64,000 bases of DNA, taken from the NCBI GenBank assembly GCA_964607415.1, contig CAZSKK010000001.1, positions 260,190-324,189 on the forward strand, written 5' to 3'. Origin of the DNA: an uncultured Candidatus Saccharibacteria bacterium (lineage in GTDB: Bacteria > Patescibacteriota > Dojkabacteria > J137). The notes under the pieces were generated by a model. That model saw nothing but the letters and a program-made list of their open reading frames with translations. It was not told the origin of the DNA and did no database searches. Shown piece by piece: positions 9,282-45,294 of the stretch; positions within the stretch are counted from its first letter, which is position 1; each line of letters begins with the position of its first letter. Both the position numbers and the translations under genes were made by a program.

Positions 9282-9316
9282 GCTAATAGCTATATGCTAT
9301 AGGCTAATTGCTAATA
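9282..9316. repeat. Heptamer tandem array (GCTAATA GCTATAT GCTATAG GCTAATT GCTAATA) immediately upstream of the Cys-rich protein start
   Basis: Five consecutive 7-bp units matching GCTRWWN, related to the AGCTGAT arrays at 30059 and 45252. Confidence 0.7.
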
Positions 9317-9319
9317 AAA

Positions 9320-11824
9320 ATGTCACGACAAAAAAAGATTTTAATTGGAATTCTTATTTTTCTTACTTTAATTCTTGCTGGAGTTTCAATTTACATAACC
9401 TATAAACTGACTCAAGAGGATCAAGCACCTGAGGATACAAGTGCTTCTGTGTTATGTAGTGCCTTTGATAGCTATGACTCATGTTCAAATGTTGGTGAAA
9501 TAAGATGTAACAATGGTAATGAACAAAGATGTACACGATTTTTCTGTCATGCTACCGATACAACTCAAGCTGCAAATGAAAATAGAGTTAGATGGAATAA
9601 CACAGGAAATACTTGTGGTGGGCAAGATGTTGATGATGGGGAAACCACAAATTTAAATTGTAATGGAGTTTCTTGTACTTTAACTCAATCTACTCAGTGT
9701 GCAAATGCAACAGGAACGATGTTTTATTGTCCAGGTGGCCTAGTTAATGGAAGCTGTTTAGAAAATCCAGTGTCAATTGGTACTTTTCAGCCAGGGCAAA
9801 CAGTCGATGTATCACAGTATTTTACAAGAGGTTGTGGGGGTTATCAAATTGATTTTGAAAGACAAGGTGCAGCACCAGGGTCAGCAACTTGTGGAGCTGC
9901 GACTTTTACAAATAATACCTGTTCACCTACAACTCCCCCACTTGATGGTCAGCAATGTACAAACAGTGCTGGATGTCTAATATTTTTGTGTCCTAATGGT
10001 TGTGGAACTGATGGTAGATGTCAAACAGGTGGAAGTGAAGCTGATGAAGGTGCTACTGTAGTGGTAGATCCAACCTGTTCTGGAGTAATTGGTGGAAATG
10101 GTTGTGGTCAAATCGATGAAATGACTGGTACGGACCCATTGAGTGGAACATTTTGTCAGGTTAGAGCAAACACTTGTGTGGATACTTCAACTCAAGTTTG
10201 CCAACCTGGTTGTAACGATATTTGCGCTCCAAATGCAAATAACCAACAAGGTAATTGTGCAACTGGTCAAATTTGTACCGATGTAAATGGAACAAATAGA
10301 TGTAGACTTGCAACAAATCCTACAAGTGCAACTTGCGAACCTCCAACACAACAACAGACAAGGCAAATTAGTTTTCAAGGAAACGTTTATTGTCAGGATG
10401 GTAATGGACCAGTTTATCAGATTCCAGGTGCTGTGGTTACAGCAAACATTCCTGGCCAAGGCCAATTTTATGAACAAACTAATTCAACTGGAGGTTTTCA
10501 GTTTGATAGGCAAAACTTAACTACAACAAATATGACACTACAGAATTTAAGTGTATCTTTGCCAAATGGAACCTTGCCTACAGGACAGTCTATTGCAGCA
10601 TTGGTAGGTCCTACAGCAACTAATTGTTCAACTGGTACTCAAACTGGTTGCACTGCAGGAACAGGAAATTATTGTTCTACTGGATCCGATCAGTACCAAG
10701 CTTGTACATTAAATGCGCCTCAAATTGTTAATCTTTATCAAAACTTTAACTTTAGATTTACAAACTGCAGTCCTCAACCAAATCAATGTATCGATTTAAT
10801 TGAAGGTGGAGAAGATCCAATTGATGCTGGAGTTGGTAATACTGTAAACTACACTTTACAGTATAGGTTTAATCAAGCTACTAATCCATTCCCAAATATT
10901 AGGCTTAGAGTAGGTCCTTCTGGTACACCTGTAGGAAGAGATTTCTATACGCCAGCAAATGTACTTGTTGCACCAGCAGTAATTTCAAACAATCCTTCCT
11001 ATAATCCTTCAACAGGTATATGGACTTACATATTTACTTGGGAATCTGCTGAAGTAGGTGGTGCTGATGTTGCAGATGGAACGTATGATGTAAGAGTTCT
11101 AACAGATGGTACAGGAGCAAGCGAGGTAACAACCCCTGTTGGTTGTTTGGAAACAATTACCATCACCAATGGAACAACCCAACAGCCAAACTTTCAGGTA
11201 GTTAAAGCTTCTACAAGTGTTTGTGAAGCAGATGGAGATGCTGCAATTAGTTATACTATTACCGTTACTAATATTGGACCAGTAACGGGCGTTATTGATT
11301 TTGTTGAAGACACATTAGATTCTACAGCAATCGCTTTGAACATACTTCCTACAAACATTAATCCTTCCTATGGAAGTTATTCTAATGGAAGAATTACTTG
11401 GATAGGCACTGTAGGGGATAGAACTTATACAGCTGGCCAATCTAGGAATTTTACTTACAGTTTAACTGTGCCAAGAAACAACTTGATTAGCTTTTTAAAT
11501 GGAGTTGACAATCAAGTTGAGGTTGAATTTACTACAACATCAACAAATACAAGAGTCTTCACGCTAACAACAATGTTAACTTGCTCTCTTCCTCCAATTC
11601 CATCAACAGCATTTGGAGATGATGGAGGTAGATATTTACTAATCGGTGGCATGCTAATGGTTATTGCTTTACTAATTTTCAAATTTAGATTGGGTGCTGG
11701 ATATGTAGACAAGTTAATGAATGAAGGCTTAGAATATACTTCAGAAAAGATTACTTCTTCTATGCCTTTTGAAAAAGGAATAGAAAAAAGATTAAAAAGA
11801 AAAACAGGCAAAAAGTCATACTGA
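9320..11824 (+). CDS. Large Cys-, Thr-, Asn-, Gly-, Gln-rich surface protein: N-terminal signal anchor, C-terminal TM helix and short cytoplasmic tail
   Basis: Dozens of cysteines in CxxGxC / TCGG / GCG spacing in the N-terminal ~400 aa; low-complexity T/N/Q-rich middle; C-terminal hydrophobic helix LLIGGMLMVIALLIF followed by a basic tail. Confidence 0.55.
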   Translation: MSRQKKILIGILIFLTLILAGVSIYITYKLTQEDQAPEDTSASVLCSAFDSYDSCSNVGEIRCNNGNEQRCTRFFCHATDTTQAANENRVRWNNTGNTCGGQDVDDGETTNLNCNGVSCTLTQSTQCANATGTMFYCPGGLVNGSCLENPVSIGTFQPGQTVDVSQYFTRGCGGYQIDFERQGAAPGSATCGAATFTNNTCSPTTPPLDGQQCTNSAGCLIFLCPNGCGTDGRCQTGGSEADEGATVVVDPTCSGVIGGNGCGQIDEMTGTDPLSGTFCQVRANTCVDTSTQVCQPGCNDICAPNANNQQGNCATGQICTDVNGTNRCRLATNPTSATCEPPTQQQTRQISFQGNVYCQDGNGPVYQIPGAVVTANIPGQGQFYEQTNSTGGFQFDRQNLTTTNMTLQNLSVSLPNGTLPTGQSIAALVGPTATNCSTGTQTGCTAGTGNYCSTGSDQYQACTLNAPQIVNLYQNFNFRFTNCSPQPNQCIDLIEGGEDPIDAGVGNTVNYTLQYRFNQATNPFPNIRLRVGPSGTPVGRDFYTPANVLVAPAVISNNPSYNPSTGIWTYIFTWESAEVGGADVADGTYDVRVLTDGTGASEVTTPVGCLETITITNGTTQQPNFQVVKASTSVCEADGDAAISYTITVTNIGPVTGVIDFVEDTLDSTAIALNILPTNINPSYGSYSNGRITWIGTVGDRTYTAGQSRNFTYSLTVPRNNLISFLNGVDNQVEVEFTTTSTNTRVFTLTTMLTCSLPPIPSTAFGDDGGRYLLIGGMLMVIALLIFKFRLGAGYVDKLMNEGLEYTSEKITSSMPFEKGIEKRLKRKTGKKSY

Positions 11825-11880
11825 TAAAAATTGTTAAAGTTGACATAGTTAGGTTACTTAAATCTTTTAATATAACTTTT

Positions 11881-12183
11881 ATGAAAACACTAAAAATTTT
11901 AATAACATTATTTTTATTTATAAGCTTAATTTTACCGTTTTCAGTTTTTGCCGAAGGAACAGGTGATCCAAATGCAGACCCAAACCAATTGCCTGAAGTT
12001 GTACAAGAAGGTGGAATTACCACAGAGGAATCGGAACAAATTCAAGAAGAAGCTCAAAATGAATCTAGCGAATCTACAAAAGATGATACAGAAACTTTTT
12101 TAACAGGAATTGGTGTGGGTGCTTCTCTTGGTTTGATCGTTGGAGGTGTTTTTGCCTGGGTTCTTAAAGATAAAATTCTTTAA
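11881..12183 (+). CDS. Small acidic secreted/anchored protein (signal peptide plus C-terminal TM)
   Basis: Signal-like MKTLKILITLFLFISLILPFSVFA, acidic middle, C-terminal GVGASLGLIVGGVFAWVL. Confidence 0.4.
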   Translation: MKTLKILITLFLFISLILPFSVFAEGTGDPNADPNQLPEVVQEGGITTEESEQIQEEAQNESSESTKDDTETFLTGIGVGASLGLIVGGVFAWVLKDKIL

Positions 12184-12194
12184 ACCTAATTAAA

Positions 12195-12479
12195 ATGTCT
12201 GATCTACTTTTCACCCTTGTTTTAAAAAATATTGCGTTGCCAATAGTTTTCTTTTTGATTTTAAAATCATCAATATTAGATGATGAAAATTCTTTTCTGG
12301 CTGTAGTTTTAACCTTAACTATCGTAAATATTATTCAAGTACTCCTTCAGTCCATTAGGATTCTTACCAATTCAATGATGATGAAAGGACGAAAAGTCAC
12401 AAGACTTTTAATTGCCATAGTTATTGAACTGGTAAGTGTATTAGGTTTTTGGTATTATTACCTTGCTAAATTTAATTAA
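12195..12479 (+). CDS. Small hypothetical membrane protein
   Basis: Three hydrophobic segments in 94 aa. Confidence 0.35.
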   Translation: MSDLLFTLVLKNIALPIVFFLILKSSILDDENSFLAVVLTLTIVNIIQVLLQSIRILTNSMMMKGRKVTRLLIAIVIELVSVLGFWYYYLAKFN

Positions 12480-12489
12480 TAATTAAACC

Positions 12490-13506
12490 ATGAAAACAAT
12501 TTATATTTCTGACTTACAAAAAAATCAAATTATTACAAATGAAGCATTTGTAATTGCTGAAGCAAAACGAATGGAGGATAAAAATGGAAAAACTTACTTT
12601 AATGTAACCTTAGCTGATAAAACAGGCAAAATTGAAGGCAAAATTTGGAGCGATAGCTTAGGGTCAATTGAAGTTAAAGCGATAAAAGAAGATAAAGTTG
12701 TACAAATAAGTGCAAAAGTTGATGAATATAAGGGCAAAATGCAGTTAAATGTTATGAGCTTAAATTCAGTTGATGAATCTTCATTAGAAGAATTCTTGGA
12801 ATCAAGTGAATTTAATGCCGATGAGATGTTTAAAGAAATAGAATCTGAAATTGAGAATATTAAAAATGTAAAAATAAAAAAGATGCTAAAAACAGTTATA
12901 TCTGATTCTGAGATAGGAAGAAGATTTAAGTATTGGCCCGCAGCTTCTAGCGTTCATCATGATTTTAGATCGGGACTGCTTCAGCACGTATTAGAAATGT
13001 TGAGTATCAGTAAGGGATTAATTCGATTTTACCCTGAAGTTAATTATGATATTTTAACGGCTGGAATTATAATGCATGATATTGGTAAAGTGTACGAATT
13101 GGATGCGCAAGGCATTACTGCAAGATATACAACAATTGGCTCTTTAATTGGACATATCCCTATTGGATTACAAATACTTGATAGATTTGGCAAGGATGTG
13201 TTGGATAAAAATGATTATTTCCATATTGCTCATTTGATTTTATCTCATCATGGTAGTAAAGATTTAGGCAGCCCTGTAGTTCCATCCACAGTTGAAGCTA
13301 TAATGCTCTCCAATATTGATCTTCTTTCATCTAAAGCTAGAACTGCTCAAAAAGCAACCGATTCTATTACTCAAGGAAATGAGTTTAGTGGGTTTAATCA
13401 ATGGCTTAATGGAACAAGATTATGGAAACAAGAAAATGCAGAATCCGAAATTGATGATAAAGATTTAGTAAATGATGATACTGGTGATCAACTTAGCTTA
13501 GGATAA
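12490..13506 (+). CDS. YhaM-like 3'-5' exoribonuclease (OB-fold + HD domain)
   Basis: N-terminal OB-fold-like region; HD motifs HHDF...HVLEML...IMHDIGK...HLILSHHG. Confidence 0.55.
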   Translation: MKTIYISDLQKNQIITNEAFVIAEAKRMEDKNGKTYFNVTLADKTGKIEGKIWSDSLGSIEVKAIKEDKVVQISAKVDEYKGKMQLNVMSLNSVDESSLEEFLESSEFNADEMFKEIESEIENIKNVKIKKMLKTVISDSEIGRRFKYWPAASSVHHDFRSGLLQHVLEMLSISKGLIRFYPEVNYDILTAGIIMHDIGKVYELDAQGITARYTTIGSLIGHIPIGLQILDRFGKDVLDKNDYFHIAHLILSHHGSKDLGSPVVPSTVEAIMLSNIDLLSSKARTAQKATDSITQGNEFSGFNQWLNGTRLWKQENAESEIDDKDLVNDDTGDQLSLG

Positions 13507-13515
13507 TTTATAACT

Positions 13516-14100
13516 ATGAGACTTTTTGTTGCGATATTCCCACCCAAAGAACACCTTGATTATTATAGAGATGTATTAAGAGTATTCAGCAAGCAAAAAA
13601 GAAATTTAAGACCTATTCCTGTTGATCAAACACATTTAACACTTAAATTCATTGGCAGTAATGTAAGTGAAGAGTCTAAAAATTTGATTGCTGAGCAATT
13701 ACTTGCATGGCAAGGTTCCTACCCAAAGCCAGAAATTAAAGTAAAGGCAATTAAGTTTGGCTTTGCTAATCAATCTTCACCAAGGCACCTGATTGCAGCA
13801 ATTGAAAGAAATAACGAATTAGATGAGCTTGGCAAAATGGTTCACGATGCAGTTAAAGCTCAAAAACAACGAGATACAATTAGGTGGAAAACTAAGTACT
13901 CCAGGAGTTATCATATAACCTTGGCCAAGCTAAAAGATACTGCAACAAATAGCTCTGGAAAACTTATTACTTCAAATATCAAGAATATTAAAATTCAACC
14001 ACCAAAGGCTTTTGTTCCTGATGAAATGTTTTTAATAGAAAGCTTAACTTCCAGAAGCGGAACTCCAATTTATAGAAGAATTGAAAGAATCAAGTTGTAA
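13516..14100 (+). CDS. RNA 2',3'-cyclic phosphodiesterase / 2'-5' RNA ligase (ThpR/LigT, 2H phosphoesterase)
   Basis: Two H-x-T-x motifs (HLTLKF and HITLAK) at canonical spacing. Confidence 0.7.
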   Translation: MRLFVAIFPPKEHLDYYRDVLRVFSKQKRNLRPIPVDQTHLTLKFIGSNVSEESKNLIAEQLLAWQGSYPKPEIKVKAIKFGFANQSSPRHLIAAIERNNELDELGKMVHDAVKAQKQRDTIRWKTKYSRSYHITLAKLKDTATNSSGKLITSNIKNIKIQPPKAFVPDEMFLIESLTSRSGTPIYRRIERIKL

Positions 14101-14164
14101 TTTTCAAATATCAATTTAAAGAGTTTTCAAAATGAACTGAAAATTGATACTTGTAAATTGAAAA

Positions 14165-14461
14165 TTACTTTTCAATCATCTTACTCGTTTTTATATATCC
14201 TAACTTCTCTCTTCCTTGGGTTGCATTTTTTAAAGCGTCTTTGCGTTCTAATCCTTTTGTTACAACATCTTCTTTTAAAACCTGTCCCTTATAGTCGTTC
14301 ATATTATGCTCAAACTCAATATCAGACACATCACATTCATTAACTTGAGAAACGTAATCTAAAATGCTATTAAATTCTTTTTCAAATTTATCAAGCTCCG
14401 TATCGCTAAATTGAAGCTTTGAAAGCTTAGCTATGTGTTTTATTTCGTCTTTTGTTACCAT
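14165..14461 (-). CDS. gatC: Asp-tRNA(Asn)/Glu-tRNA(Gln) amidotransferase subunit C
   Basis: 98 aa; IKHIAKLSKLQFSDTELDKFEKEFNSILDYVSQVNECDV matches the GatC pattern. Confidence 0.7.
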   Translation of the reverse strand: MVTKDEIKHIAKLSKLQFSDTELDKFEKEFNSILDYVSQVNECDVSDIEFEHNMNDYKGQVLKEDVVTKGLERKDALKNATQGREKLGYIKTSKMIEK

Positions 14462-14647
14462 AAAGAAAAGAATAATGATTTAAGAATAGTGACCTGCTAT
14501 CAGACTAGAGAAGTTAATTGGTTAGTTTGTTAACAGTTAATTAGTGAATTGAATAAATTAACATTTTACTAATTAACACTTAACTGCTCAAACCTCTAAC
14601 CTGAATTGCTGCTGTCTTACTCTCTACCTCTCTTACGCTCTAAACCT

Positions 14648-16015: not shown

Positions 16016-16167
16016 GATTTTAGTTAAAAAAAAGTAATCACATTATGATAGCAAAAAACAGGTCTGGTTAGTAGGTAAACATGAATGCTTTCCTCTTCTT
16101 TGAGGGGAGGTTAGGGTGTGTGTTCATGCAGTACAAATTTTCCCATCATTTATAAATGCACACCTCA

Positions 16168-16188
16168 AACAGCATAAAATGCTGTTTA
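16168..16188. promoter_or_regulatory. Perfect 9-bp inverted repeat AAACAGCAT-AAA-ATGCTGTTT in the divergent RNase/rnpA intergenic region
   Basis: Read directly from sequence; a candidate operator or hairpin. Confidence 0.4.
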
Positions 16189-16211
16189 TCCCTCTCTAGA
16201 GGGGTGAATAC

Positions 16212-16220
16212 TGTTATAAT
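16212..16220 (+). promoter_or_regulatory. Extended -10 promoter element TGtTATAAT for rnpA; predicted transcript is leaderless or nearly so
   Basis: TGTTATAAT ends 6 nt before the rnpA ATG at 16227. Confidence 0.4.
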
Positions 16221-16226
16221 TGTTTT

Positions 16227-16559: not shown

Positions 16560-16633
16560 AGAAAATCGAAGAATTGATAAAAATTGTCTTCTGCGTCATC
16601 TTTCGAGTTCCCCCAAGATGACACAGTTACTAC

Positions 16634-18451
16634 TTATCCAACATCCGGCTTATACGAAAGGTTTCCGCCCAAAAGAGTCCTAATATCTTTAATGTTGTGT
16701 TTAGCCATTGCCCATCTATCAAGGCCTAATCCAAAGGCATAACCTTGCCACTTGTTTGAATCAATTCCAGCCATTTGCAGAACTTTTGGATGAATAATTC
16801 CAGCACCACCCATTTCCAGCCAACCTCTGCCTTTACAAAGTGGACAACCTACCCCATGACAATTGAAGCACTGCATATCCGGACCAACACCCGGCTCAAC
16901 TTCTGGATAATATTTATTTCTATATCTTGTTACAACATCTTCACCAAGATAAGTTTTAAACAAATGCTCAATTGTAGAAATTAATTCGGCAAGGCTTACT
17001 TTTTCTTTTACAACAACAAGTTGATACTGGTGAAAAGTAAAGTGATTGCTTCTGTTAACCTTTTCGTTTCGGTAAACTCTTCCAGGCATTACTACTTTGT
17101 ATGGTGGTTCAAAAGTTTCTAAAACTCTAGCCTCAATAGAAGAAGTTTGTGTTCTTAATAAAATATTTGGTTCTTCAATAAAAATACTATCCTGTAGATC
17201 TCTAGCTGGATGGTCTAAAGGCAAATTTAATCTCTGAAAACAATATTCATCAGTTTCAATTTCAGGTCCATCCATAATGCTATAGCCTAATCTATTGAAG
17301 ATTTCATTTAACTCATTTATTGTTTGAGTTAATGGATGTATATGGCCAATTTTAGGTTTATTAAAATTTAACTGCTTCTGATCTTGAAGTAAATAAGACT
17401 TATCCTTTGATTGAAGTAAGGTTTTTTTAGCATCATTAATTTCAGCATCAATAATTGTTTTAACTTGGTTAACTTCTGCTCCATAAATTTTTCTCTTTTG
17501 TGGATCGATTTGGCTAATTTTAGACAAAGCTTCTTTTAGCACACCATCTTTACCTAAATAAGATCTCCAAAGATTTGTTAGTTCTTCTTCAGTTTTTAGT
17601 AAGCTAAGTTTTTCTTTTGCTTCAGCAATCAACGTTTTTAGTGAATCATTTGTAATTTCAACGCTTGAGCTCTTATCACTACTTGAATCTTGAATCTTAA
17701 TTCCTGAATCTATTAAGTAACTTATGGTAGTTTCATTATTTACACTTACAATATCACTAATTATTATATTTCCCACTTCAGACGTAGATTTGACGATTGT
17801 TCCTCCGTCAGCAACAGATCCAATGCCTTCAAGAGTTAACATTCTTAAAGGTTTGTTTTCAGGCAGATTTGGTTGAAGATAAATTGCTGTTTGTTTTAAC
17901 TCTTCTAAAGAAACCATTTTCCAGCTAAAGTGCATATTTTTATTAATAATTTCGTTTACTTTATCTTGAATTTTTTCTTTTACATCTGAAGGCACAATAC
18001 CTTTGTAAGTTATAAAAGGCTTTTTACCATGATCTCCTTTTTGAGGAGATAATGTATTTGGAGATAGCCCCAGCATAAAAACAGCAAAATCAATTATATG
18101 ACCTGCTGAGTGAATTTGCATATGTTTAAAACGTCTGTCCCAGTTTATGCTAGCCGTTACAACCTTACCAACCAAATCAGTCTTTTCAGTTTTAACATAA
18201 TGGCCGATTTCACCATCTTTAACTAAAACTTGATACACATCCAATTTTGTTCCATCATCTAAACTTAGTATTCCTTGATCTGTAGGTTGACCCCCTCCCA
18301 TTGGATAAAACACTGTTTTATCCAAAATGATTTTAGCTGCATCGCCTTCAGGAATTACTTCAAGAATTTTTGCTTTGGTTTCTTTTAAATATGGATCAAG
18401 TAGGTATAGTTGTTCTGTTTTCATTTGCTTTGAATTTGTACCTATTAACAT
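16634..18451 (-). CDS. pheS: Phenylalanine--tRNA ligase alpha subunit with an N-terminal AlaX-like (tRNA editing-type) domain
   Basis: C-terminal ~340 aa carry the PheS catalytic core (FQRLNLPLDHPARDLQDSIF, LLRTQTSSIEAR, GRVYRNE, FHQYQ, GLGLDRWAM) after a coiled-coil. The N-terminal ~265 aa match AlaX-M: DPYLKETKAKILEV...ILDKTVFYPMGGGQPTDQG, then HSAGH (HxxxH). The second zinc motif is degenerate (ADGGTIV instead of CGGTHV). Confidence 0.8.
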   Translation of the reverse strand: MLIGTNSKQMKTEQLYLLDPYLKETKAKILEVIPEGDAAKIILDKTVFYPMGGGQPTDQGILSLDDGTKLDVYQVLVKDGEIGHYVKTEKTDLVGKVVTASINWDRRFKHMQIHSAGHIIDFAVFMLGLSPNTLSPQKGDHGKKPFITYKGIVPSDVKEKIQDKVNEIINKNMHFSWKMVSLEELKQTAIYLQPNLPENKPLRMLTLEGIGSVADGGTIVKSTSEVGNIIISDIVSVNNETTISYLIDSGIKIQDSSSDKSSSVEITNDSLKTLIAEAKEKLSLLKTEEELTNLWRSYLGKDGVLKEALSKISQIDPQKRKIYGAEVNQVKTIIDAEINDAKKTLLQSKDKSYLLQDQKQLNFNKPKIGHIHPLTQTINELNEIFNRLGYSIMDGPEIETDEYCFQRLNLPLDHPARDLQDSIFIEEPNILLRTQTSSIEARVLETFEPPYKVVMPGRVYRNEKVNRSNHFTFHQYQLVVVKEKVSLAELISTIEHLFKTYLGEDVVTRYRNKYYPEVEPGVGPDMQCFNCHGVGCPLCKGRGWLEMGGAGIIHPKVLQMAGIDSNKWQGYAFGLGLDRWAMAKHNIKDIRTLLGGNLSYKPDVG

Positions 18452-18499
18452 TAAACTAATACTGATCTTACCAAAAACTAAGTGTTTTTGTAAGCCTGA

Positions 18500-20218: not shown

Positions 20219-20246
20219 ATCTGTATTTCTTTAAATCCTTTTCTAC

Positions 20247-28890: not shown

Positions 28891-29973
28891 CTACCCATTG
28901 TGCTTAAAAAGCATTATATCTCCATCTTTCACAATATATGTTTTTCCTTCTAACCTAACTTTGCCTTTTTCTTTAGATTTAACCCAACCACCAAACTCCA
29001 CAAAATCTTGCCAGAAAACTACATCTGCGGCAATAAAGTTTTTCATTATATCTGTATGAATAGCTCCAGACGCTTGTTGTGCGTTTTCACCTTGCCTGAT
29101 AGTCCAGGCCCTGACTTCTGTAGGGCCTGAGGTAAAATATGAAATCAAACCTAAATGCTTGTACGCCTCTTGAGTTAATGTTTGTAAGCCAGTTTTTTCT
29201 ATTCCTAATTCTTTCATAAATTCAGCTCTCTCATCTTCTGTCATATTTGTAAGCTCTGCCTCTGTTTGAACATCCATAGGAACTACAATATTCTCACCAA
29301 CTAATGGTTTAATTTTAGCCATAACTGCATCTTTTTCTGCATCTTTTACATTTAAAAGAAATATTACAGGTTTATCCGTTAATAAAAACATTGTTTTTCT
29401 AAGTTCTTCAACTTCTTCATTGTTTGAATGTGGAAATTCAACAGCAAGCTTTCCGTTAGATAGATGCTGCATAAAAGCTTCAATAAAATCAACAACTGGT
29501 TTCATTTTTGCGTCGGTTCTTGCAAATCCTTTAATTGAAGATTTCTTTTTTTCAACTGTTTCAATATCTTTTAAAATTAATTCTGTATTAATTAATTCTA
29601 TGTCTCTTGCTGGATCAATAGAATTTTCTACGTGAGTAATATTTGGATCCTCAAATCCTCTAACTAAATGTACGATTGCAGAAACTTCTCTGATGTTTGC
29701 TAAAAATTGATTTCCAAGTCCTTCACCACTTGCTGCACCTTTTACAAGGCCCGCTATATCAACAAATTCAACAACTGCATTTGTAATTTTTGCTGGTTTT
29801 TCAACTTCTGCAACTTTGTTTAATCTTTCATCAAAAACTGGAACAATTCCAAAGTTTGGATCGATTGTTGCAAAAGGATAATTTGCAGCTAAAACTTTTT
29901 GACTTGTTAGTGCATTAAATAATGTGGATTTACCAACATTTGGTAATCCTACAATTCCTAAAGATAGTTTCAT
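28891..29973 (-). CDS. ychF: Ribosome-binding ATPase YchF (Obg-family GTPase)
   Basis: G1 GIVGLPNVGKSTLFNALT and a C-terminal TGS domain. Confidence 0.85.
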   Translation of the reverse strand: MKLSLGIVGLPNVGKSTLFNALTSQKVLAANYPFATIDPNFGIVPVFDERLNKVAEVEKPAKITNAVVEFVDIAGLVKGAASGEGLGNQFLANIREVSAIVHLVRGFEDPNITHVENSIDPARDIELINTELILKDIETVEKKKSSIKGFARTDAKMKPVVDFIEAFMQHLSNGKLAVEFPHSNNEEVEELRKTMFLLTDKPVIFLLNVKDAEKDAVMAKIKPLVGENIVVPMDVQTEAELTNMTEDERAEFMKELGIEKTGLQTLTQEAYKHLGLISYFTSGPTEVRAWTIRQGENAQQASGAIHTDIMKNFIAADVVFWQDFVEFGGWVKSKEKGKVRLEGKTYIVKDGDIMLFKHNG

Positions 29974-30058
29974 ATATAGTCTGCTTATTCAACTTACCTC
30001 TCTGTAGCAGAGGTCGATCATGCATTTTGTTTCATGATCACGTGAGATAAATAAAATT

Positions 30059-30107
30059 AGCTGATAGCTGATAGCTGATAGCTGATAGCTGATAGCTGAT
30101 AGCTGAT
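30059..30107. repeat. Perfect tandem array (AGCTGAT)x7 in the divergent intergenic region
   Basis: 49 nt of exact 7-bp repeats; palindromes GATCATG...CATGATC and TCACGTGA lie just upstream. Confidence 0.85.
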
Positions 30108-30260
30108 ATTACATTTTAGATTACTTAGAACAATTAGTGAACTTAGATTAATTTACCAAAATGATTATAGCAGGAAATTTTAAATATATAATCAGAATAT
30201 TGCATGTCGACAGTTAATGCCGTCTCGTGCTATAATAGATTATTAGTTTATTAAAAATAT

Positions 30261-31310
30261 ATGGCCGATTTTGAAAATTCACATTCGACATACTTAATCG
30301 AAACATTAAGGGGTAACCTTACTGTTTCTGAACAGATTGAAGACCCTATTTTAATAAAACTTGCTGATGAGATTAGATCAATAGCAGATGACATTACCTT
30401 ATATTTTGATCAAAATTGTAGTAATAAGAAGGCTCCGCCTAACATTGTTTTAATTTCTGATGAACTTTTATCTGATTTTTCTGAGGTTAATAGCGGGTTA
30501 ATAAGTAAAAAAGCAAATCACACAGCATTTTATTTAGGCGACAGTACAATATTGATTAATATAACAAGAATTTTAAGTGATTTTGGATTACAAGAACATC
30601 AAATAAATAGACTGAATGAAAAATTAAGTGATGAAGACCAATTAACCCTTCTGGGACCAGATGGGAAACTTTTTTTAAAACTAAGACTTGCAATTGATTT
30701 TTTAGATCATTATGCTATTAAATTAGACGCGAGTAATGGGATACGCTCGCTATTCTCATTTAAGTGGGCTTCGTCAATAAAAAGTAAAGTATTTCATCGC
30801 AAAAATATAGGTATTGTTACTTCATTTGAAAGAGCAACTGAAAAAGGAGCTCGACCGAACTTAGATAATGCAATTTCACACAAAGACTTTTATCAAACAA
30901 ATCTTCTGAAAATATTGGGGTTAAATTTAATTCTGCCTTCAGTTTGTTCGGACACAGAACTAATGACAATTAGTACTGCAGTCTTAACAAGAATTGATGG
31001 TAATCCGAACTTCAACCTTTATAAACCAGATGAGTTTTCTGAAGAAATGAACCGAAATGGAATAAATATAAACGATATAATTGAGTTTTTAAATTCTGAG
31101 AACCCACTAGCCAATATGCTTAGAGTTAATGCATTTGAGCAGGTTGATAAGGTTTCACTAATTCAAACTTTTGCAAGAAGTATACTAAATCCAAACAAAA
31201 ACGATTCAATACTTAAAGCATATTTAATAGCTAGCACGGGAAAAATTAATAATGTTTCGCTTGAAGCCTTATTTCAATTCATATCGGCTACTAGAGATAC
31301 TGAGGGATAA
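30261..31310 (+). CDS. Hypothetical protein
   Basis: 349-aa ORF; no motifs. Confidence 0.4.
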   Translation: MADFENSHSTYLIETLRGNLTVSEQIEDPILIKLADEIRSIADDITLYFDQNCSNKKAPPNIVLISDELLSDFSEVNSGLISKKANHTAFYLGDSTILINITRILSDFGLQEHQINRLNEKLSDEDQLTLLGPDGKLFLKLRLAIDFLDHYAIKLDASNGIRSLFSFKWASSIKSKVFHRKNIGIVTSFERATEKGARPNLDNAISHKDFYQTNLLKILGLNLILPSVCSDTELMTISTAVLTRIDGNPNFNLYKPDEFSEEMNRNGININDIIEFLNSENPLANMLRVNAFEQVDKVSLIQTFARSILNPNKNDSILKAYLIASTGKINNVSLEALFQFISATRDTEG

Positions 31311-34671: not shown

Positions 34672-34739
34672 CTTTCTAACACCTTAGAAAGCCTCTAGCC
34701 TGTATAACTTTCAGTAATACTTACTATCTTTTCTAGAAG

Positions 34740-35789: not shown

Positions 35790-35829
35790 ATTTAGTATAT
35801 AACTAATTAATATACTCTATTAGTAAAGT

Positions 35830-39600: not shown

Positions 39601-39654
39601 CTTAAGATTATTAGTCCTAGCACCTCTAATTTTGATTATATCCATGTGTTGCAT
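36619..39654 (-). CDS. uvrA: Excinuclease ABC subunit A
   Basis: [61 protein letters not shown], both ABC modules and zinc-finger Cys clusters. Start placed at [13 protein letters not shown]; the extra 29 codons in the ORF track lie upstream of the predicted promoter. Confidence 0.9.
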
Positions 39655-39684
39655 AACTGAGAAATGTGAAGTTTGTAACAGAAG

Positions 39685-39693
39685 ATTATAACA
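39685..39693 (-). promoter_or_regulatory. Extended -10 promoter (TGtTATAAT on minus strand) for uvrA
   Basis: Plus-strand ATTATAACA is the reverse complement of TGTTATAAT, 31 nt upstream of the chosen uvrA start. Confidence 0.4.
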
Positions 39694-39830
39694 CAGCCTC
39701 GCCCCTTTCGCATTCACGAAGACCCTCTCCTGAGACAACATATTATGCTGTAGAATGGAGCTAATAAAATCTCAATAGGCTAATATCCTGTCCTCGGGGT
39801 GGCGAGCAAAGTGAGCCGGGTGATGCTGTG

Positions 39831-40589
39831 TTACTCCACCAACAGCAGCAAATACATTGCTCCAATTCCTAAACAAAAAGCTGTAATTTCCAACGCATAT
39901 TTAAATATGCCTGATTTTTTGTGGATTTCTGGAAGTAAATCAGCCAAAGCGATGTAAATAAATTGGCCTACAACTAAGGGTACTAAATATTTTTCGGAGT
40001 TCTCAGTTACAGAACTTATTGCAACGCCTATAATCGCACCCAAAACCGCTGTTAATGCTGTCAACACATTCACAATTAATATTTTTCTTCTCCTCAGCCC
40101 TGCATATTTTAATACCCCAGCGTCTGCAAGTTCTTGTGGGATTTCGTGTAGACTTACAGCAATCGTAGTTGCTATTCCTGTTGCAGGTGCTACTGCAAAG
40201 CTTGCAGCAATTGCAAGACCATCTAAAAAATTGTGAAAAGCATCTCCTATTAAATTTACCCTAACCAACACGCTTTTATTCTTGTGCTCATGTGGGTGAT
40301 CAATTTCTTCTCTGGAATCATGGCTACAATGGAAATAGGCTTCAATTAAAAGCATTAGTATGACTCCTGTAAATATCAAAAGTGTTGTTTGATTTTCGTA
40401 ACCAAATTGTTCGATGTGCTCACCAAGTAGATGAATTAGAGCATCAGCTAAAAGACTTCCAGCTGCAAATGCAACAATCGCAGTTATAATTTTGTCCCCG
40501 GATTTTATATTTTTTAAAAGTACAAGAAGTCCTAGGAATGAAATTGAGCTTACAATTAAGGTTGCAATTAATGAGTAGATTAGTTCCAT
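39831..40589 (-). CDS. ZIP-family divalent metal transporter (ZupT-like)
   Basis: HNFLDGLAIAASF and HEIPQELADAGVL signature helices; 8 TM. Confidence 0.8.
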   Translation of the reverse strand: MELIYSLIATLIVSSISFLGLLVLLKNIKSGDKIITAIVAFAAGSLLADALIHLLGEHIEQFGYENQTTLLIFTGVILMLLIEAYFHCSHDSREEIDHPHEHKNKSVLVRVNLIGDAFHNFLDGLAIAASFAVAPATGIATTIAVSLHEIPQELADAGVLKYAGLRRRKILIVNVLTALTAVLGAIIGVAISSVTENSEKYLVPLVVGQFIYIALADLLPEIHKKSGIFKYALEITAFCLGIGAMYLLLLVE

Positions 40590-40627
40590 ATTTATTATAG
40601 TTTAGAATTAAGATGAATGATTCAAGA

Positions 40628-40694
40628 ATAACCCCTCCGGCTCTCCGAGCCACCTCCCCTTTGATTAAAGGGGAGGAATTAAAGGAGGGGTTGT
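40628..40694. repeat. GC-rich structured intergenic element R3 (ATAACCCCTCC...GGAGGGGTTGT)
   Basis: Inner hairpins GGCTC-TCC-GAGCC and CCTCCCCTTT-GATT-AAAGGGGAGG. Linker AATTAAA is identical to R1. It overlaps the last ~10 codons of the inositol-monophosphatase-like gene. Confidence 0.7.
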
Positions 40695-41459
40695 ATCTAA
40701 TATCATTCTACCAATCTTGTCAACTACTCCAGAGTTCCCAACTGCCAATATATTCATACTTTCATTTAATTTTAATGTTTCAACTTTGCACCCTGCCTTT
40801 TCGGCAATAAAGCTTCCTGCCCCAAAATCTACCAAGTTTTTTAAGTCTGAGTTATCATAAAATTTTACAAAAACTCCAGGGAATCCTAAAGATATCCAGC
40901 AAAGTGTAAGTGAATCTATACCAAAAATCCTAATTCGCATAGATTCCTCAGCAATTTTATTAATTAATTCCCCAGAATTTTTATAACTTCTTAAATCTAA
41001 AAATACTTGTGTCTGATCTAACTGATCTATTTTAGTACCATTTATTTGTTTGTTATTTAAAAAGCTTCCAGCAGAGTCGGCAAAAAACAACTCTTTTGTT
41101 GTGGGTGAATAAACAATCCCAAGAATAGTTTCATTATTATGTCTTAATGCTAAGGAAACTCCCCATAAACTCACTCCTCTTGCGTAATATTTTGTTCCAT
41201 CAATCGGATCTAAATACCAAACATATTCTTTATTATTTCTTAACAAATCAAATTCCTCTCCATAAAATCCTATTTCTGGAAAAGTTTTATTTAAAAACTT
41301 GTAAAAGCTTCTTTCTAGCTCTTTATCGATTTTTGTAACGACATCAAAATTCTCTCCTTTATATTCAAGTCCTATGTCATTTTGCAAAGCTTTAAGTGCA
41401 TAATCGCCTTGTTGAACAACAAATCTTTTCAATAGGTTGACCTGGGGTTTTGTTAACAT
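40665..41459 (-). CDS. Inositol monophosphatase family protein (SuhB/CysQ-like)
   Basis: WYLDPIDGTKYYARG (DPIDGT) metal-binding motif; the C-terminal PPLIPPL residues are encoded by repeat R3. Confidence 0.75.
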   Translation of the reverse strand: MLTKPQVNLLKRFVVQQGDYALKALQNDIGLEYKGENFDVVTKIDKELERSFYKFLNKTFPEIGFYGEEFDLLRNNKEYVWYLDPIDGTKYYARGVSLWGVSLALRHNNETILGIVYSPTTKELFFADSAGSFLNNKQINGTKIDQLDQTQVFLDLRSYKNSGELINKIAEESMRIRIFGIDSLTLCWISLGFPGVFVKFYDNSDLKNLVDFGAGSFIAEKAGCKVETLKLNESMNILAVGNSGVVDKIGRMILDTTPPLIPPL

Positions 41460-41515
41460 GAAAGTTTAAGGTAAAATGTGGTGCGTAAAAATTTTAACAT
41501 TTTTTAATTGAATGT

Positions 41516-42829
41516 ATGAATAAAGCTATTACTTTTTTTGTGGCAGGTGGAAAAGGTACCCAGCCTTTTATGGATTTATATTTAAAAAGTAAATATGATT
41601 GCCACATTGTTATAAATACAGTTGATTGGGGTGGGCATAGTGGTGTAATTGGAAGAATATTAGAAAGGCTTAATCTAAAATTTCTTCCTACAGGTGATTT
41701 AAGGAACAATATAGCAAACATACTTTTGCTTAATGGCAAAGAAGAAATAGCAAATATGCTGCAAAAACGTGTTGAAACTTTAACTGATGCACAGGTTGAA
41801 GTTAGAAAACTATGTGAAGTTAGAAAGGTTGATGATAATTTAACCTTGGGAGTTTTTGAATTTTTCAATATATACAAAAAGGGACTTGAAGAAAGCATAA
41901 AGCATGGTGAAATAGGAGAAATTGAAGGCATAAAACATAATATTGGAAACCTTTTTTTTGTAGGCATTGCCTATGCTCTTAAAAATGAAGATAGAAAATT
42001 TGGAGGGTTTAGTGCTTTGCTCTCTAAAATTAAAGAAATGGAATTAATTCCAAAAAATATTTTCTTTCATTACCTTTTTGATACACGCCTAACACTTTCA
42101 TTTCGAACTAAAGATGGGGTTATTTACTACGGTGAAGACGTCTATGATCACATCAATTCCCAGGTTGAACTTTCCACATTAAATTATATTGATCCTGAAA
42201 CAAAAATTAAGTTCTTTGATTTGAATAAACATATAATCAAACTAATTGAGGAATCTGATTTAATAATTTTCCCAACTGGGTCAGAAAGCAATTGTTATCC
42301 TGCAATAAAGATGTATGCAAAATACCTAAAGTCTAAACAAATTATAAAATTTGTAAATATTTTAGCTTTGCCCAATTCTGAAGGAATTGGTGCAGAAATG
42401 GTTTATCTTTACGGACTTGGATTAAAGCCTAAATTTCTGTTTCCAAAACCAATGGATGTTATTATAAAAGATTTAGATCCAAATACTACAAATATTTTCT
42501 TTAGAGACTTGGGAATTTACACTGCTGTCGAAGAAAAAAGACCACAATTTTATAAAGAAGCAAGAATAAAGGACAGACTCTACGATATGGCGAAGATTAA
42601 GTTATATAAGTTTCACCAAGGCCAGCAAACAGAATTGGATAATATCGTAAAAGATATTATTAAAAACATTGAACCAGTAATGGATGTTCTGGCATTCAAC
42701 AGTAACAACAAATCTACCATTGCAAATTCAATAAAAAACAAAGGTAAATATGACGTAGCTTTATTGGACAAAGGACTAAGACATGATAGAAACCAAGTAA
42801 GCAAGATTGTAGAAGATTCTTTAAAATGA
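41516..42829 (+). CDS. CofD/YvcK (UPF0052) superfamily protein, distant
   Basis: FFVAGGKGTQPFMDLYLKSK (GGTGT-like) and VDWGGHSGVIGRI (DDGGSSGRLR-like) motifs. Confidence 0.45.
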   Translation: MNKAITFFVAGGKGTQPFMDLYLKSKYDCHIVINTVDWGGHSGVIGRILERLNLKFLPTGDLRNNIANILLLNGKEEIANMLQKRVETLTDAQVEVRKLCEVRKVDDNLTLGVFEFFNIYKKGLEESIKHGEIGEIEGIKHNIGNLFFVGIAYALKNEDRKFGGFSALLSKIKEMELIPKNIFFHYLFDTRLTLSFRTKDGVIYYGEDVYDHINSQVELSTLNYIDPETKIKFFDLNKHIIKLIEESDLIIFPTGSESNCYPAIKMYAKYLKSKQIIKFVNILALPNSEGIGAEMVYLYGLGLKPKFLFPKPMDVIIKDLDPNTTNIFFRDLGIYTAVEEKRPQFYKEARIKDRLYDMAKIKLYKFHQGQQTELDNIVKDIIKNIEPVMDVLAFNSNNKSTIANSIKNKGKYDVALLDKGLRHDRNQVSKIVEDSLK

Positions 42830-43082
42830 CAACAGGTTAACCGTTGCAGCAAAAAATTTCCCTTGTTTTTTTCTGAAAAATATTTTATTCTTTGATATAT
42901 CAACTACATAAATAAACACCCTTTTATTTGTTAATATTTTCAACATCAAATCAAGCCTAATCGATTACAAACACCAAAACCCACCTTTTATAGTTATTTT
43001 CTCTGAACTAAGGCAAGAACCTGATTTAATCAAATTTACCCGTGAAGTTACCGAAAAGGTTATAGAAATTGATCAAAATTTA

Positions 43083-43502
43083 ATGCCAAATGAACAAGCG
43101 CCTTTAATTGTTAATGTTGTTGATTTTAGAAAGCTAAATATAAATCAGTCACTAATTAATAGCATTTTTGATTTGCAAAGTTCTCTGGCAGAAAATGAGC
43201 AACTTGTTAATGATTTTAAAACTTTATTTAGGTATAAAGGTGGATATTTAACTTATATTTTGCTAGATGTGACTTTGGAAGATTTAAAAGATAGCCTTGA
43301 TGCTAAACCTGCCAATCCTAAGTATCAACTTATTCTTGCGATATATGGAATACTTTCCAGTGCAAGAATTGGAGGCGGTTTTGCTAAGGAGTTTGATACA
43401 GGCGCCGACAGTGTTATAGAACAATTAAAGAAGCACCCACTTTATAGAATGAGGGATAAAAGAGCAATACTTACTAAAGGTAAAAAGAAGAATTTAATTT
43501 AA
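43083..43502 (+). CDS. Hypothetical protein, paralog A of a tandem pair; true start probably upstream near 43014
   Basis: Shares PLIVNVVDF, KGGYLTYIL, IGGGFAKEF, HPLYRMR motifs with 43885..44367. In-frame upstream codons also match the paralog N-terminus but lack an ATG. Confidence 0.5.
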   Translation: MPNEQAPLIVNVVDFRKLNINQSLINSIFDLQSSLAENEQLVNDFKTLFRYKGGYLTYILLDVTLEDLKDSLDAKPANPKYQLILAIYGILSSARIGGGFAKEFDTGADSVIEQLKKHPLYRMRDKRAILTKGKKKNLI

Positions 43503-43516
43503 ATTAAATTTAAAAT

Positions 43517-43762
43517 ATGCAAAAACCAGATGATGCGACAATGCTTAGGCTTAAAAATTTAGCTTACGTAGGAAATGCAGTTTTTAAAAACGCTAGTGAT
43601 GTTACTGGTCAGAATGATTTTTTCCTAGCAATGCAGGCTTTGCTTGATTTTGAAAAGGGAATTAATGATTTAGAGCTTGATTTTGAAACTGCTGAAGGTA
43701 TGAAAAATCTTATAAAGTACTTGAAAATTAAAATTGAAAGAAGAATGAAGGAACGACTTTAA
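43517..43762 (+). CDS. Hypothetical small protein between the tandem paralogs
   Basis: 81-aa ORF, same strand, tight spacing. Confidence 0.35.
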   Translation: MQKPDDATMLRLKNLAYVGNAVFKNASDVTGQNDFFLAMQALLDFEKGINDLELDFETAEGMKNLIKYLKIKIERRMKERL

Positions 43763-43884
43763 GAAGTTTAAAAAGAATCTCCAAACTTAAAACTGATTAC
43801 AGTACATATTAAACATAGTTTATAGCAACAAAAGTTATTGACTACAAAGATGCGTATCTATCACTAAAACTTGTACAAGTTTCA

Positions 43885-44367
43885 ATGTCACCAGGCATTG
43901 ATTTTATAGAAGTGGCTCGCATAGTCGATAAAATCCTTTCCAAACTTGACTTTACTTTAAGTTCTAACGAACTTCCACTTGTAGTTTGTGTTGCAGACTT
44001 TAGAAATATAAAGGTTAATCAAAGTTTAATAAATCAAATTGTCCGATTGACTGAATCATTAACAATTGAAGATGATGATATAGCTAATTTAGAATATATG
44101 AGCAAGTATAAAGGAGGCTTTTTAGCATATGTTATTGCCGATGACAGCCTTGAGGATTTGAAACTGAAAGCACATTCTAATCAGAATGATTTAAAATACC
44201 AGTTTTTATTAAAAGTATTCGATCTTCTTTCTGCAATGAAAGTAGGTGGTGGTTTTGCAAAAGATCTGCTCGAAGTAAAGTCTTTATTAAAAAATCATCC
44301 TCTTTATAAACTTAGAAACAACGAGACTACTTTAGCAGCAAATCCTCAGTCAAAGCTAAAATACTGA
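43885..44367 (+). CDS. Hypothetical protein, paralog B of the tandem pair
   Basis: PLVVCVADF, KGGFLAYVI, VGGGFAKDL, HPLYKLR conserved with paralog A. Confidence 0.5.
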   Translation: MSPGIDFIEVARIVDKILSKLDFTLSSNELPLVVCVADFRNIKVNQSLINQIVRLTESLTIEDDDIANLEYMSKYKGGFLAYVIADDSLEDLKLKAHSNQNDLKYQFLLKVFDLLSAMKVGGGFAKDLLEVKSLLKNHPLYKLRNNETTLAANPQSKLKY

Positions 44368-44664
44368 GTTCTTAATGCAGACTTCAAATGCACCACCTTG
44401 CCCTGTAAAGTATCCAGCTTGTTTAAATTCCTCAACAAATTTATTTTGTTTAAGTAGTTTTTGAACTAATGGTTTTACAATTCGCCCTTTCCCTGTGATT
44501 ACAAGAACTTTGGAAAAGCCAAAGTTGTATGAATCTTCCAAAAAATCAAAAAGAAGCTTTTCTATATCAAAATGTGTTAGCTCTCCAAACTCGTGATAAT
44601 CAAGTTTATCCTGAAACTGCAGGTTTTCTAGTTCAAATTGAGTCTTACTCTTAGTCTTCATCAT
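44356..44664 (-). CDS. Smr (small MutS-related) domain protein
   Basis: KVLVITGKGRIVKPLVQKLLK matches the Smr domain; start moved to MMKTKS to avoid overlap. Confidence 0.55.
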   Translation of the reverse strand: MMKTKSKTQFELENLQFQDKLDYHEFGELTHFDIEKLLFDFLEDSYNFGFSKVLVITGKGRIVKPLVQKLLKQNKFVEEFKQAGYFTGQGGAFEVCIKNSVF

Positions 44665-45223
44665 AAAGTGTATTTGGCTCGCCCACATATTTATCGGTGT
44701 TGGCCAGCTCATCTATTTTATCAGCAAGATCTACAAGCTCTTGAGGTACTGTGTCCTCTAAACCATAAAGTTTAATTGATTTAAATTCGTCATCTAGCCG
44801 TAACGAAATAGTTGTAGAAGGCAAATCAGTTATATAAGGATCAACATATTCATCATCAAGATCAAAAAAATCAACGTCTTCAAACTCGCGAATTATTTTT
44901 GTTACATTGGCTTCAGGTATTGAATAGCTTTCGTTTTTTCCAGGGCTTTGCACAAAATTTCTACCTTCAAAGATTACTTCACCCGCTTCTGTTATAGTAA
45001 CAGTGTAATCCGGACAGAAACCAAAACACGCTTGTCTATCTAGTGTTATTTCAGCCTTGTCGTAATTAGAATATTCAGAATTATCTCCAACGGAAAAATT
45101 TATGTCTGAATCAAAATCTGAATTAAATAACATCGTTGCAGCAAGAACGCAGCAACTTATAATGCAACAAAGAACAATAAAAACTACAACAAAAAATGCT
45201 AATCCTTTTGAATTTTTTTCCAT
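44651..45223 (-). CDS. Hypothetical secreted/membrane-anchored protein
   Basis: N-terminal hydrophobic anchor LAFFVVVFIVLCCIISCCVLAA. Confidence 0.4.
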   Translation of the reverse strand: MEKNSKGLAFFVVVFIVLCCIISCCVLAATMLFNSDFDSDINFSVGDNSEYSNYDKAEITLDRQACFGFCPDYTVTITEAGEVIFEGRNFVQSPGKNESYSIPEANVTKIIREFEDVDFFDLDDEYVDPYITDLPSTTISLRLDDEFKSIKLYGLEDTVPQELVDLADKIDELANTDKYVGEPNTLYDED

Positions 45224-45251
45224 AATTTCTTGTTAATGGTTAATAGTTAAT

Positions 45252-45294
45252 AGCTGATAGCTGATAGCTGATAGCTGAATTAAGCATAGCTGAT
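45252..45294. repeat. Tandem AGCTGAT heptamers (three perfect plus imperfect copies; TTAATAG units just upstream)
   Basis: AGCTGATAGCTGATAGCTGATAGCTGAA...AGCTGAT, in a divergent intergenic region. Confidence 0.8.

Follow-up and report, generated by a model that had tools for sequence, protein, structure and literature searches.

Phased GCTA-core heptanucleotide arrays upstream of three genes in a candidate-phylum genome: a probable family of slippage-prone leader repeats

Why should a small, gene-dense genome of a candidate-phylum bacterium, with little room for junk, carry short tandem repeats that are consistently oriented against start codons? The question is raised by a stretch of 64,000 nucleotides (64 kb) of contig CAZSKK010000001.1 from an uncultured member of the Patescibacteria, which we refer to as the window, meaning the whole stretch of DNA that was analysed. 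Three non-coding arrays of period 7, each built on a constant GCTA core, lie there upstream of ychF, of a gene of the DUF6438 family and of a gene for a large Cys-rich protein. These arrays very probably constitute one lineage-specific family of heptanucleotide tandem repeats, prone to slippage and sitting in leaders. The class to which they belong is already known but poorly understood, and the window adds a new example of it without adding a new kind of system.

Three arrays with one core and one orientation

The three arrays were recovered by sequence inspection and by Tandem Repeats Finder (TRF) at the positions that a preliminary description of the window had given for them. Together with the genes that they face, they are:

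9282-9316, plus strand: array A, units GCTAATA GCTATAT GCTATAG GCTAATT GCTAATA, ending 3 nt before the ATG at 9320
9320-11824, plus strand: gene for a Cys-rich protein of 834 aa and 40 Cys, with a hydrophobic segment at each terminus
28891-29973, minus strand: ychF, ribosome-binding ATPase (Pfam YchF-GTPase_C 1.6e-34, MMR_HSR1 2.3e-22)
30058-30108, minus strand (ychF sense): array B, perfect (AGCTGAT) x7.3, TRF score 102
44651-45223, minus strand: DUF6438 gene with an N-terminal membrane anchor (Pfam DUF6438 1.1e-30)
45232-45294, minus strand (DUF6438 sense): site C, GTTAATA x3.1, perfect AGCTGAT x4.1 and one isolated copy
45233-45281, minus strand: array C, seven phased heptads, AATTCAG, CTATCAG x3, CTATTAA x2 and CCATTAA

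On the sense strand of the gene downstream, the relaxed unit is GCTAWNN and the canonical unit 5′-CAGCTAT-3′; array B, for example, reads (ATCAGCT)n, or equally GCTATCA, in the sense of ychF. The GCTAW strand is the plus strand at site A and the minus strand at sites B and C, and in all three cases (3/3) it is the sense strand of the gene whose ATG follows, at a distance of 3 nt for array A, 9 nt for array C and 84 nt for array B (6 nt in the related strain L306). By this sense, the genes faced are the 834-aa gene, ychF and the DUF6438 gene, and not the divergent hypothetical genes named in the preliminary description. That description was right about a perfect AGCTGAT run at site C, and its count of three perfect copies has to be raised to 4.1. 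Site A lies between a gene for a 503-aa protein and the 834-aa gene, both on the plus strand, and array B between ychF on the minus strand and a 349-aa hypothetical gene on the plus strand. At site C, the perfect part of the array occupies 45250-45278 and the isolated AGCTGAT copy 45287-45294. The 834-aa protein matched no Pfam family, the best named homologues of YchF are those of Candidatus Dojkabacteria, and the identical DUF6438 protein was found on 14 contigs.

Several searches bear on the part that chance might play in a window whose G+C content is 30-35%. Phased GCTA or TAGC arrays occur in the 64 kb at sites A, B and C only, and the GCTAWNN x4 pattern likewise matches these three sites and nothing else in the window (0.00 expected). 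The 14-mer AGCTGATAGCTGAT, allowed up to two mismatches, has 12 matches where 0.38 would be expected, a number reached in 0 of 100 shuffles, and GCTANNNGCTA has 14 window matches against 1.14 expected; for GCTAWNN x4 and GCTANNNGCTA, too, none of the 100 shuffles attained the number seen. A scan of all 4-mers at periods of 5-12, requiring at least four phased copies, returned sites A, B and C together with three unrelated weak sites. No second phased 4-mer family recurs in the window, where the GCTAW core stands at three independent loci and which is otherwise not rich in heptamer arrays. Single AGCTGAT heptamers are not enriched in the window (13 outside the arrays vs ~8.8 expected); it is only the arrays that are special. 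Furthermore, all three lie between open reading frames (ORFs), and the sole other GCTA-N3-GCTA dimer is one chance-level match inside a gene. The earlier view of the arrays as non-random, sharing a core, placed in non-coding 5′ regions and absent from coding sequence is borne out by these counts. Other weak period-7 rows, at 513-548, 3141-3171, 17682-17711 and 58720-58746, were set aside as degenerate, A/T-rich and unrelated in sequence to the arrays.

Array A can be followed between lineages. At the equivalent position in the related loci L312-L315 there are again five units, GCTAATA GCTAATT GCTAGAA GCTAACTT GCTAATC, followed by AA and ATG, in surroundings where the flanking 503-aa protein is only 63-66% identical and the flanking intergenic DNA 64% identical. 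Between the lineages, the GCTA core is identical at 20/20 positions and the remainder of the units at 9/15 (Fisher p=0.003), and among the ten site A units departures from the unit consensus fall on 0/40 core positions vs 13/30 non-core positions (p=2.5e-6), although the common ancestry of units within an array makes these p-values optimistic. The number of units, their position and the GCTA core of array A are stable, and the other positions drift; being heterogeneous, the array is poorly slippage-prone. A different periodicity, of 8 nt, is seen upstream of site A at 9227-9261 (AACGTTAA AACGTTTC AACCTTAA AACTTTGA AACTAAAA), and this stretch is partly conserved in L312-L315.

One further GCTA-rich stretch was found in the same genome, approximately 3.3 kb to the left of the window (L316, 5975-6030), and reads GCATTTA GCTAATG GCTTATT GCTAAAA GCTAAA GCTATAA. 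Irregular, and placed in a convergent intergenic region where it does not adjoin a start codon, it runs counter to the start-codon rule and is perhaps what is left of an array in decay.

Predicted leaders and differences between strains

The position of arrays B and C relative to transcription depends on a small number of further elements, which are:

29974-30057, minus strand: 84-nt segment of the predicted leader, from array B to the ychF ATG, with two small hairpins
30164-30172, minus strand: extended -10 element TGCTATAAT, predicted ychF promoter, 56 nt upstream of array B
30228-30236, plus strand: extended -10 element TGCTATAAT for the 349-aa gene, 120 bp from array B and beyond the ychF promoter
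30261-31310, plus strand: divergent gene for the 349-aa hypothetical protein, ATG at 30261
45283-45311, minus strand: predicted DUF6438 promoter, TTGAAA-17 nt-TATGCT, upstream of array C and overlapping the isolated heptamer copy
45321-45329, plus strand: extended -10 element TGCTATAAT of the sortase-like gene, 6 nt before its ATG at 45336, kept in L309
45336-45986, plus strand: weakly sortase-like gene, the divergent neighbour across site C

Arrays B and C are probably transcribed as part of the 5′ leaders of ychF and the DUF6438 gene, because conserved promoter-like elements lie upstream of both. The window holds three copies of TGCTATAAT, and all of them adjoin arrays B and C. The ychF copy is kept in L306, whose YchF is 97% identical, at 49 nt from the array, and a reading of the L309 sequence finds TTGAAT-17 nt-TATGCT in the place that matches the DUF6438 promoter. 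The layout of the gene at ATG 45336, with its -10 element so close to the start codon, is that of a leaderless gene. A Shine-Dalgarno-like motif was found for 3 of the 67 window genes, and the genome is one that does without Shine-Dalgarno use.

The orthologous array B of L306 stands in the same position and has 3.6 copies vs 7.3 in the window. In addition, the 84-nt segment that separates the array from ychF is present in the window and in L001-L004, the four Logan contigs of the window strain, and is missing in L306, leaving the gap of 6 nt given above. In L307, whose YchF is 69% identical, there is no array upstream of ychF. Copy numbers taken from Logan contigs are bounded by the 31-nt word length (k=31) of the assembly, and L001-L004 all end inside array B because this word is shorter than the repeat. 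The 84-nt segment was considered as a mobile element and rejected, having no second copy in the window or in any fetched locus. Directly beside array B in the predicted leader, at 30109-30150, TTAG (on the ychF sense strand, CTAA) occurs four times at a spacing of 9 nt, and these units are not conserved in L306. The two 349-aa hypothetical proteins that flank mfd were compared with each other and are not paralogues.

At site C, seven independent contigs of the window strain have exactly 4 copies, and three others (L007, L009 and L013) break at, or extend, the array; L013 starts with 'AT' ahead of four units, which implies a fifth and hence at least 5 copies. Among relatives with DUF6438 proteins 74-79% identical to that of the window, L309 and L310 have 2.1 copies and L311 has at least 4.3, compared with 4.1 in the window. 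The 3′ boundary of the array is common to all four (CAGCTAT TAACTAT TAACCAT TAAC(A/G)AGAAATT ATG). Indeed, the lineages are nearly identical from array C to approximately +110 of the coding sequence, in a gene whose overall third-codon-position identity is 0.53, and this near-identity of the DUF6438 leader and the first ~110 nt suggests either recombination or constraint at the nucleotide level.

These comparisons of copy number across related strains, which the preliminary description had proposed, together with the absence of the arrays from coding sequence, show that the arrays are neither invariant nor found equally inside genes. Because the differences come in 7-nt steps and the units at sites B and C are perfect, we infer slippage: perfect arrays would grow and shrink in steps of 7 nt during replication, so that their length would come to differ between strains.

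The orthologues of array C also differ in ways that are separate from copy number. In L309 (2557-2577), and also in L310, a 21-nt GC-rich hairpin, CCGTGCCTGACGGCAGGCAGG, lies inside the array, in a genome of ~32% G+C; as a mobile element it was rejected, since no further copies were present in any fetched DNA. The arrays seem to act as landing sites for small insertions, or to tolerate them. The DUF6438 protein itself has 190 aa in the window and 309 aa in its relatives, which carry a C-terminal extension (L309, 2619-3548).

Known heptamer systems and occurrence outside the lineage

To our knowledge, the heptamer repeat families of cyanobacteria, Xanthomonas, Beggiatoaceae and Bacteroidetes have been known for decades and have been assigned no function. 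In a Beggiatoaceae genome, TAACTGA sets of 2-6 copies occupy 169 sites (MacGregor 2015, PMC4679880), and the family is also present in some Cyanobacteria and some Bacteroidetes (PMC4679880). The sets are found mostly a few nucleotides upstream of start codons, where ribosome-binding sites are few; the genes downstream have no functional theme and include housekeeping genes, strains differ by 7-nt indels, and a role in translation has been suggested (PMC4679880). The window resembles this arrangement in having a favoured heptamer at several intergenic sites near start codons, in the 7-nt steps and in being poor in Shine-Dalgarno sites; in both cases the arrays abut start codons in the place of such a site (in the window at gaps of 3, 9 and 84 nt, the last being 6 nt in L306). 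However, the window unit is TAGCTGA, one base apart, and in the BOGUAY genome this variant never occurs as a repeat (PMC4679880). Furthermore, its sense strand carries the complement (TCAGCTA, or GCTAW) and not forward TAGCTGA, the host here belongs to the Patescibacteria, and three sites are known in the window.

In Xanthomonas, intergenic sites that are orthologous carry GGGAATC repeats of varying length, in (GGGANTN)n arrays that may be perfect or heterogeneous (Rehm et al. 2015, PMC4692102); related in kind are the GGGGA(C/T)T repeats of Nostoc (PMC4692102) and, as cited in PMC4692102, the STRR heptamers of heterocystous cyanobacteria, described for Calothrix PCC 7601. These families share with the window arrays a lineage-specific intergenic heptamer, the coexistence of perfect and heterogeneous arrays, and a conserved core. 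The GGGAATC and GGGGA(C/T)T units differ in being G-rich, capable of forming G-quadruplexes and present at ~180 or more loci per genome (PMC4692102), whereas the window unit is AT-rich, has a GCTA core and has no predicted structure.

The 5′ untranslated region of hmw1A and hmw2A in Haemophilus influenzae contains (ATCTTTC)n, a transcribed 7-nt leader repeat that grades expression (PMC12721329, PMC8262952). Expression of hmw1A is inversely proportional to repeat number; the repeats supply one arm of a long hairpin, which RNase III cleaves, and the genes encode pathogen adhesins (PMC12721329). As in the window, a 7-nt repeat lies between a promoter (predicted here) and a start codon and changes in length, by slippage in hmw1A and probably also in the window; in contrast, the window arrays have 2-7 copies and no significant fold, and one of the genes downstream is ychF. 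Among models of how the arrays might work, the hmw1A leader has the best experimental support.

That a period of 7 bp can mark a true array of binding sites is clear from the ribbon-helix-helix protein omega of plasmid pSM19035, which binds contiguous WATCACW heptads, 7-10 per site, with one dimer on each; these heptads overlap promoters, act as operator and centromere, and have their cognate protein encoded nearby (PMC9499535, PMC2441792). The window unit TATCAGC matches WATCACW at 5/7 positions, the window arrays lie downstream of predicted -10 elements, and no ribbon-helix-helix protein was found among the 40 window proteins scanned. At the level of RNA, HutP reads UAG-N4 repeats, with a spacing of exactly 7 nt, and TRAP reads GAG/UAG-N2-3 repeats; both are oligomeric RNA-binding rings that act on mRNA leaders in Firmicutes. 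All three window sites, however, have UAG-N4 on their antisense strand; their sense RNA would carry GCUAW. In the Pfam scans of the same 40 proteins, no candidate of the ribbon-helix-helix, HutP, TRAP, CsrA or cold-shock kind appeared. The exact window repeat had no match in the searchable literature, and the literature search returned no paper linking Dojkabacteria with tandem repeats.

Outside the lineage, (AGCTGAT)x3 is present in at least 119 reference-genome stretches, of 32-72% G+C; the matches listed include Cyanobacteria, Gemmatimonadota, Acidobacteriota, Chloroflexota, Bacteroidota, Planctomycetota, Vibrio and Pseudoalteromonas, and are mostly intergenic. In these listed loci (L015-L133), 513 of 1173 TRF rows have period 7, of which 157 are AGCTGAT, and the period-7 units far from the AGCTGAT array are essentially random relative to it. 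Unrelated period-7 arrays saturate the listed loci, those of Gemmatimonadota, Acidobacteriota and Chloroflexota at 65-72% G+C included. As a control, the three-copy pattern of each of several heptamers was counted in viral contigs:

TAGCTGA (= AGCTGAT), query: 39 viral-contig matches
TAACTGA, known repeat family: 107 viral-contig matches
TATCTGA, single-base variant: 15 viral-contig matches
TACCTGA, single-base variant: 17 viral-contig matches
AGTCGAT, composition-matched control: 15 viral-contig matches
ACGTGAT, composition-matched control: 0 viral-contig matches
GATGTCA, composition-matched control: 11 viral-contig matches

AGCTGAT x3 is therefore ~2.5 times commoner than the control heptamers (39 vs 0-17). 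The saturation with unrelated period-7 arrays and the control counts together indicate that the spread is mainly a general heptanucleotide excess, with the AGCTGAT unit itself modestly favoured, and AGCTGAT as a universal special motif was rejected on the same grounds.

In Joint Genome Institute (JGI) metagenomes, the site C leader pattern had 0 matches and a site-A-like pattern had 1, at an unrelated locus on a contig of Candidatus Peregrinibacteria. There (L352, 3532-3559), GGCTAATAGCTAATTGCTAGAGGCTAAC forms four GCTA heptads, in sense orientation, in the gap between rpsK and rpsD, 27 nt before the rpsD ATG, and is 25/26 identical to the site A orthologue in L312. This likeness in the order of units is not counted as significant, because GCTA-phased arrays are common in nature. 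Four-unit GCTATNN arrays were also seen as inverted pairs in a Kiritimatiellia genome of 67% G+C (L073, ~684-769 and ~7026-7163). The first pair, at least, is flanked by convergent ORFs, and such pairs could form hairpins that work like terminators in both directions.

A possible role in the leader and its alternatives

What might the arrays do? In the reading that we put forward, and whose chances as a whole we judge to be evenly balanced, they form a family of leader heptamers that is varied by slippage and whose core is read by something. Arrays B and C would be transcribed within leaders as (AUCAGCU)n, the phased GCTA core would be kept by selection, and the leader would be read by a factor recognising GCUA(W) every 7 nt, for which an oligomeric RNA-binding factor or a Shine-Dalgarno-independent translation-initiation machinery would be candidates; the number of repeats would then tune expression of the downstream gene. 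That the arrays share a core, are all sense-oriented (3/3) and sit against start codons, and that the core is conserved at site A, suggests a selected role in cis, which we advance tentatively, with our expectation leaning somewhat against it. The sense-oriented heptads ahead of rpsD in Peregrinibacteria, the scarcity of Shine-Dalgarno motifs, which recalls the TAACTGA case, and the Xanthomonas arrays with their conserved core also count in favour of the reading as a whole. If the arrays are functional, their place downstream of predicted promoters would favour a role at the level of RNA over that of a DNA operator.

Several observations weigh against this reading. The genome-level pattern rests on ~82 kb of genome, namely the window and ~18 kb of flanking DNA, and the promoters are predictions only. 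Beyond the shared ancestry of the site A units mentioned above, the conservation of array C may reflect recombination without selection on the array, because the whole block from the array to +110 is nearly identical between lineages. The leaders are also tolerant: that of ychF accommodates from 3.6 to 7.3 copies plus an 84-nt indel between the window and L306, and that of array C accommodates the 21-nt hairpin insertion in L309. In predicted structure, the ychF leader RNA does not exceed shuffled sequence (z=-0.36), and Rfam returned nothing in the window at the gathering threshold except two tRNAs. With E up to 1, there was no match at sites B and C, and at site A there was a chance-level one to RsaOG (19 bits vs a threshold of 50); a known RNA element was rejected on the basis of the Rfam scans and of a ychF leader fold no better than shuffled. 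Likewise, ychF, the DUF6438 gene and the 834-aa gene have no common function, and the cross-phylum AGCTGAT arrays have, on crude ORF calls, no orientation bias, no adjacency to start codons and no enrichment in divergent intergenic regions.

In an alternative reading, polymerase slippage favours 7-nt units, arrays appear and last in whatever non-coding DNA permits them, and leaders merely tolerate the resulting arrays, which would be neutral and have no selected function. We regard this as a real possibility, though a doubtful one. In many prokaryotes, heptanucleotides make up the most abundant class of long simple-sequence repeats, which has been attributed, as a proposal, to slippage tied to the footprint of the polymerase (Mrazek 2007, cited in PMC4679880 and PMC4692102). 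Cross-phylum arrays without positional or orientation preference, the period-7 rows of mostly unrelated unit that make up 513 of 1173 among the at least 119 AGCTGAT loci, the excess of only ~2.5 times over controls in viral contigs, and the tolerance of large indels all fit such a view. It accounts less well for one core at three independent sites in 64 kb that are otherwise not heptamer-rich, or for three arrays that all face a start codon in the same orientation; and site A is not slippage-homogenised, yet five phased GCTA cores are kept there in divergent relatives. That same contrast between core and other positions gives some support to the iterated binding sites of the preliminary description, and a conserved core with variable flanking positions would fit recognition by a protein. 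For the one regulator that the description put forward, the window proteins scanned yielded no candidate binder. If the sites were DNA operators, a small dimeric protein such as an omega-like ribbon-helix-helix repressor would occupy one heptad per dimer, coat the array and repress or block adjacent transcription, for which the contiguous WATCACW operator and centromere heptads are a precedent (PMC9499535, PMC2441792), the 5/7 match of TATCAGC an encouragement, and the location of array C relative to the divergent sortase-like gene, ~27-90 bp ahead of its -10 element, a further point in favour. We nonetheless consider operators improbable: the arrays lie downstream of, and not over, the predicted promoters of the genes that they abut, the window proteins scanned include no ribbon-helix-helix or other binder candidate, neither the 3/3 sense orientation nor the start-codon position is needed by an operator, and a 7-bp period puts successive sites 240 degrees apart, which is workable only for binders that wrap the DNA as omega does. 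The promoter-region location proposed earlier is not supported for arrays B and C, which are downstream of the predicted ychF and DUF6438 promoters, and the accompanying argument that copy number acts through helical phasing is inapplicable as proposed because the arrays are probably leader and not promoter spacers.

There is also the earlier suggestion of contingency loci, in which gain or loss of units would switch or grade surface or accessory genes by phase variation, as (ATCTTTC)n does in hmw1A. Candidate-phylum bacteria live attached to hosts, and variation of surface proteins would make sense for them. The arrays do lie between a predicted promoter and a start codon, as in hmw1A (PMC12721329), and do differ in length between strains, and the contigs that break at or extend array C (L007, L009 and L013) hint at length variants within a sample. 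However, the most slippage-prone and longest perfect array precedes ychF, a housekeeping gene, and the array ahead of the surface protein, besides being heterogeneous, has five units in either lineage, so that the idea fits poorly. Furthermore, at site C seven independent contigs agree on exactly 4 copies, the repeats are not predicted to take part in any long hairpin, and the 2-7 copies seen here are few beside the minimum of eleven given for natural hmw leaders (PMC12721329). We hold contingency loci to be very unlikely.

The reading of the arrays as leader heptamers recognised through their core invites a broader speculation, to which we give little credence: that phased GCUA(W) leader heptads are a recognition platform in this Dojkabacteria-like lineage, and perhaps in candidate-phylum bacteria more widely. 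Such a platform would be a signal for the initiation or control of translation, set by copy number and reset by slippage, and read by an oligomeric RNA-binding protein or by a Shine-Dalgarno-independent ribosome; the Peregrinibacteria array between rpsK and rpsD would be another instance. Were the pattern to hold genome-wide, it would count among the cleaner arguments that heptamer repeats are read and are not slippage debris, and it would bear on how translation starts in genomes that lack Shine-Dalgarno sites. On a practical level, the arrays break assemblies made with short words (L001-L004, L007, L009, L013 and L311), so that the flanks are never joined in those assemblies, and array length could serve as a strain marker.

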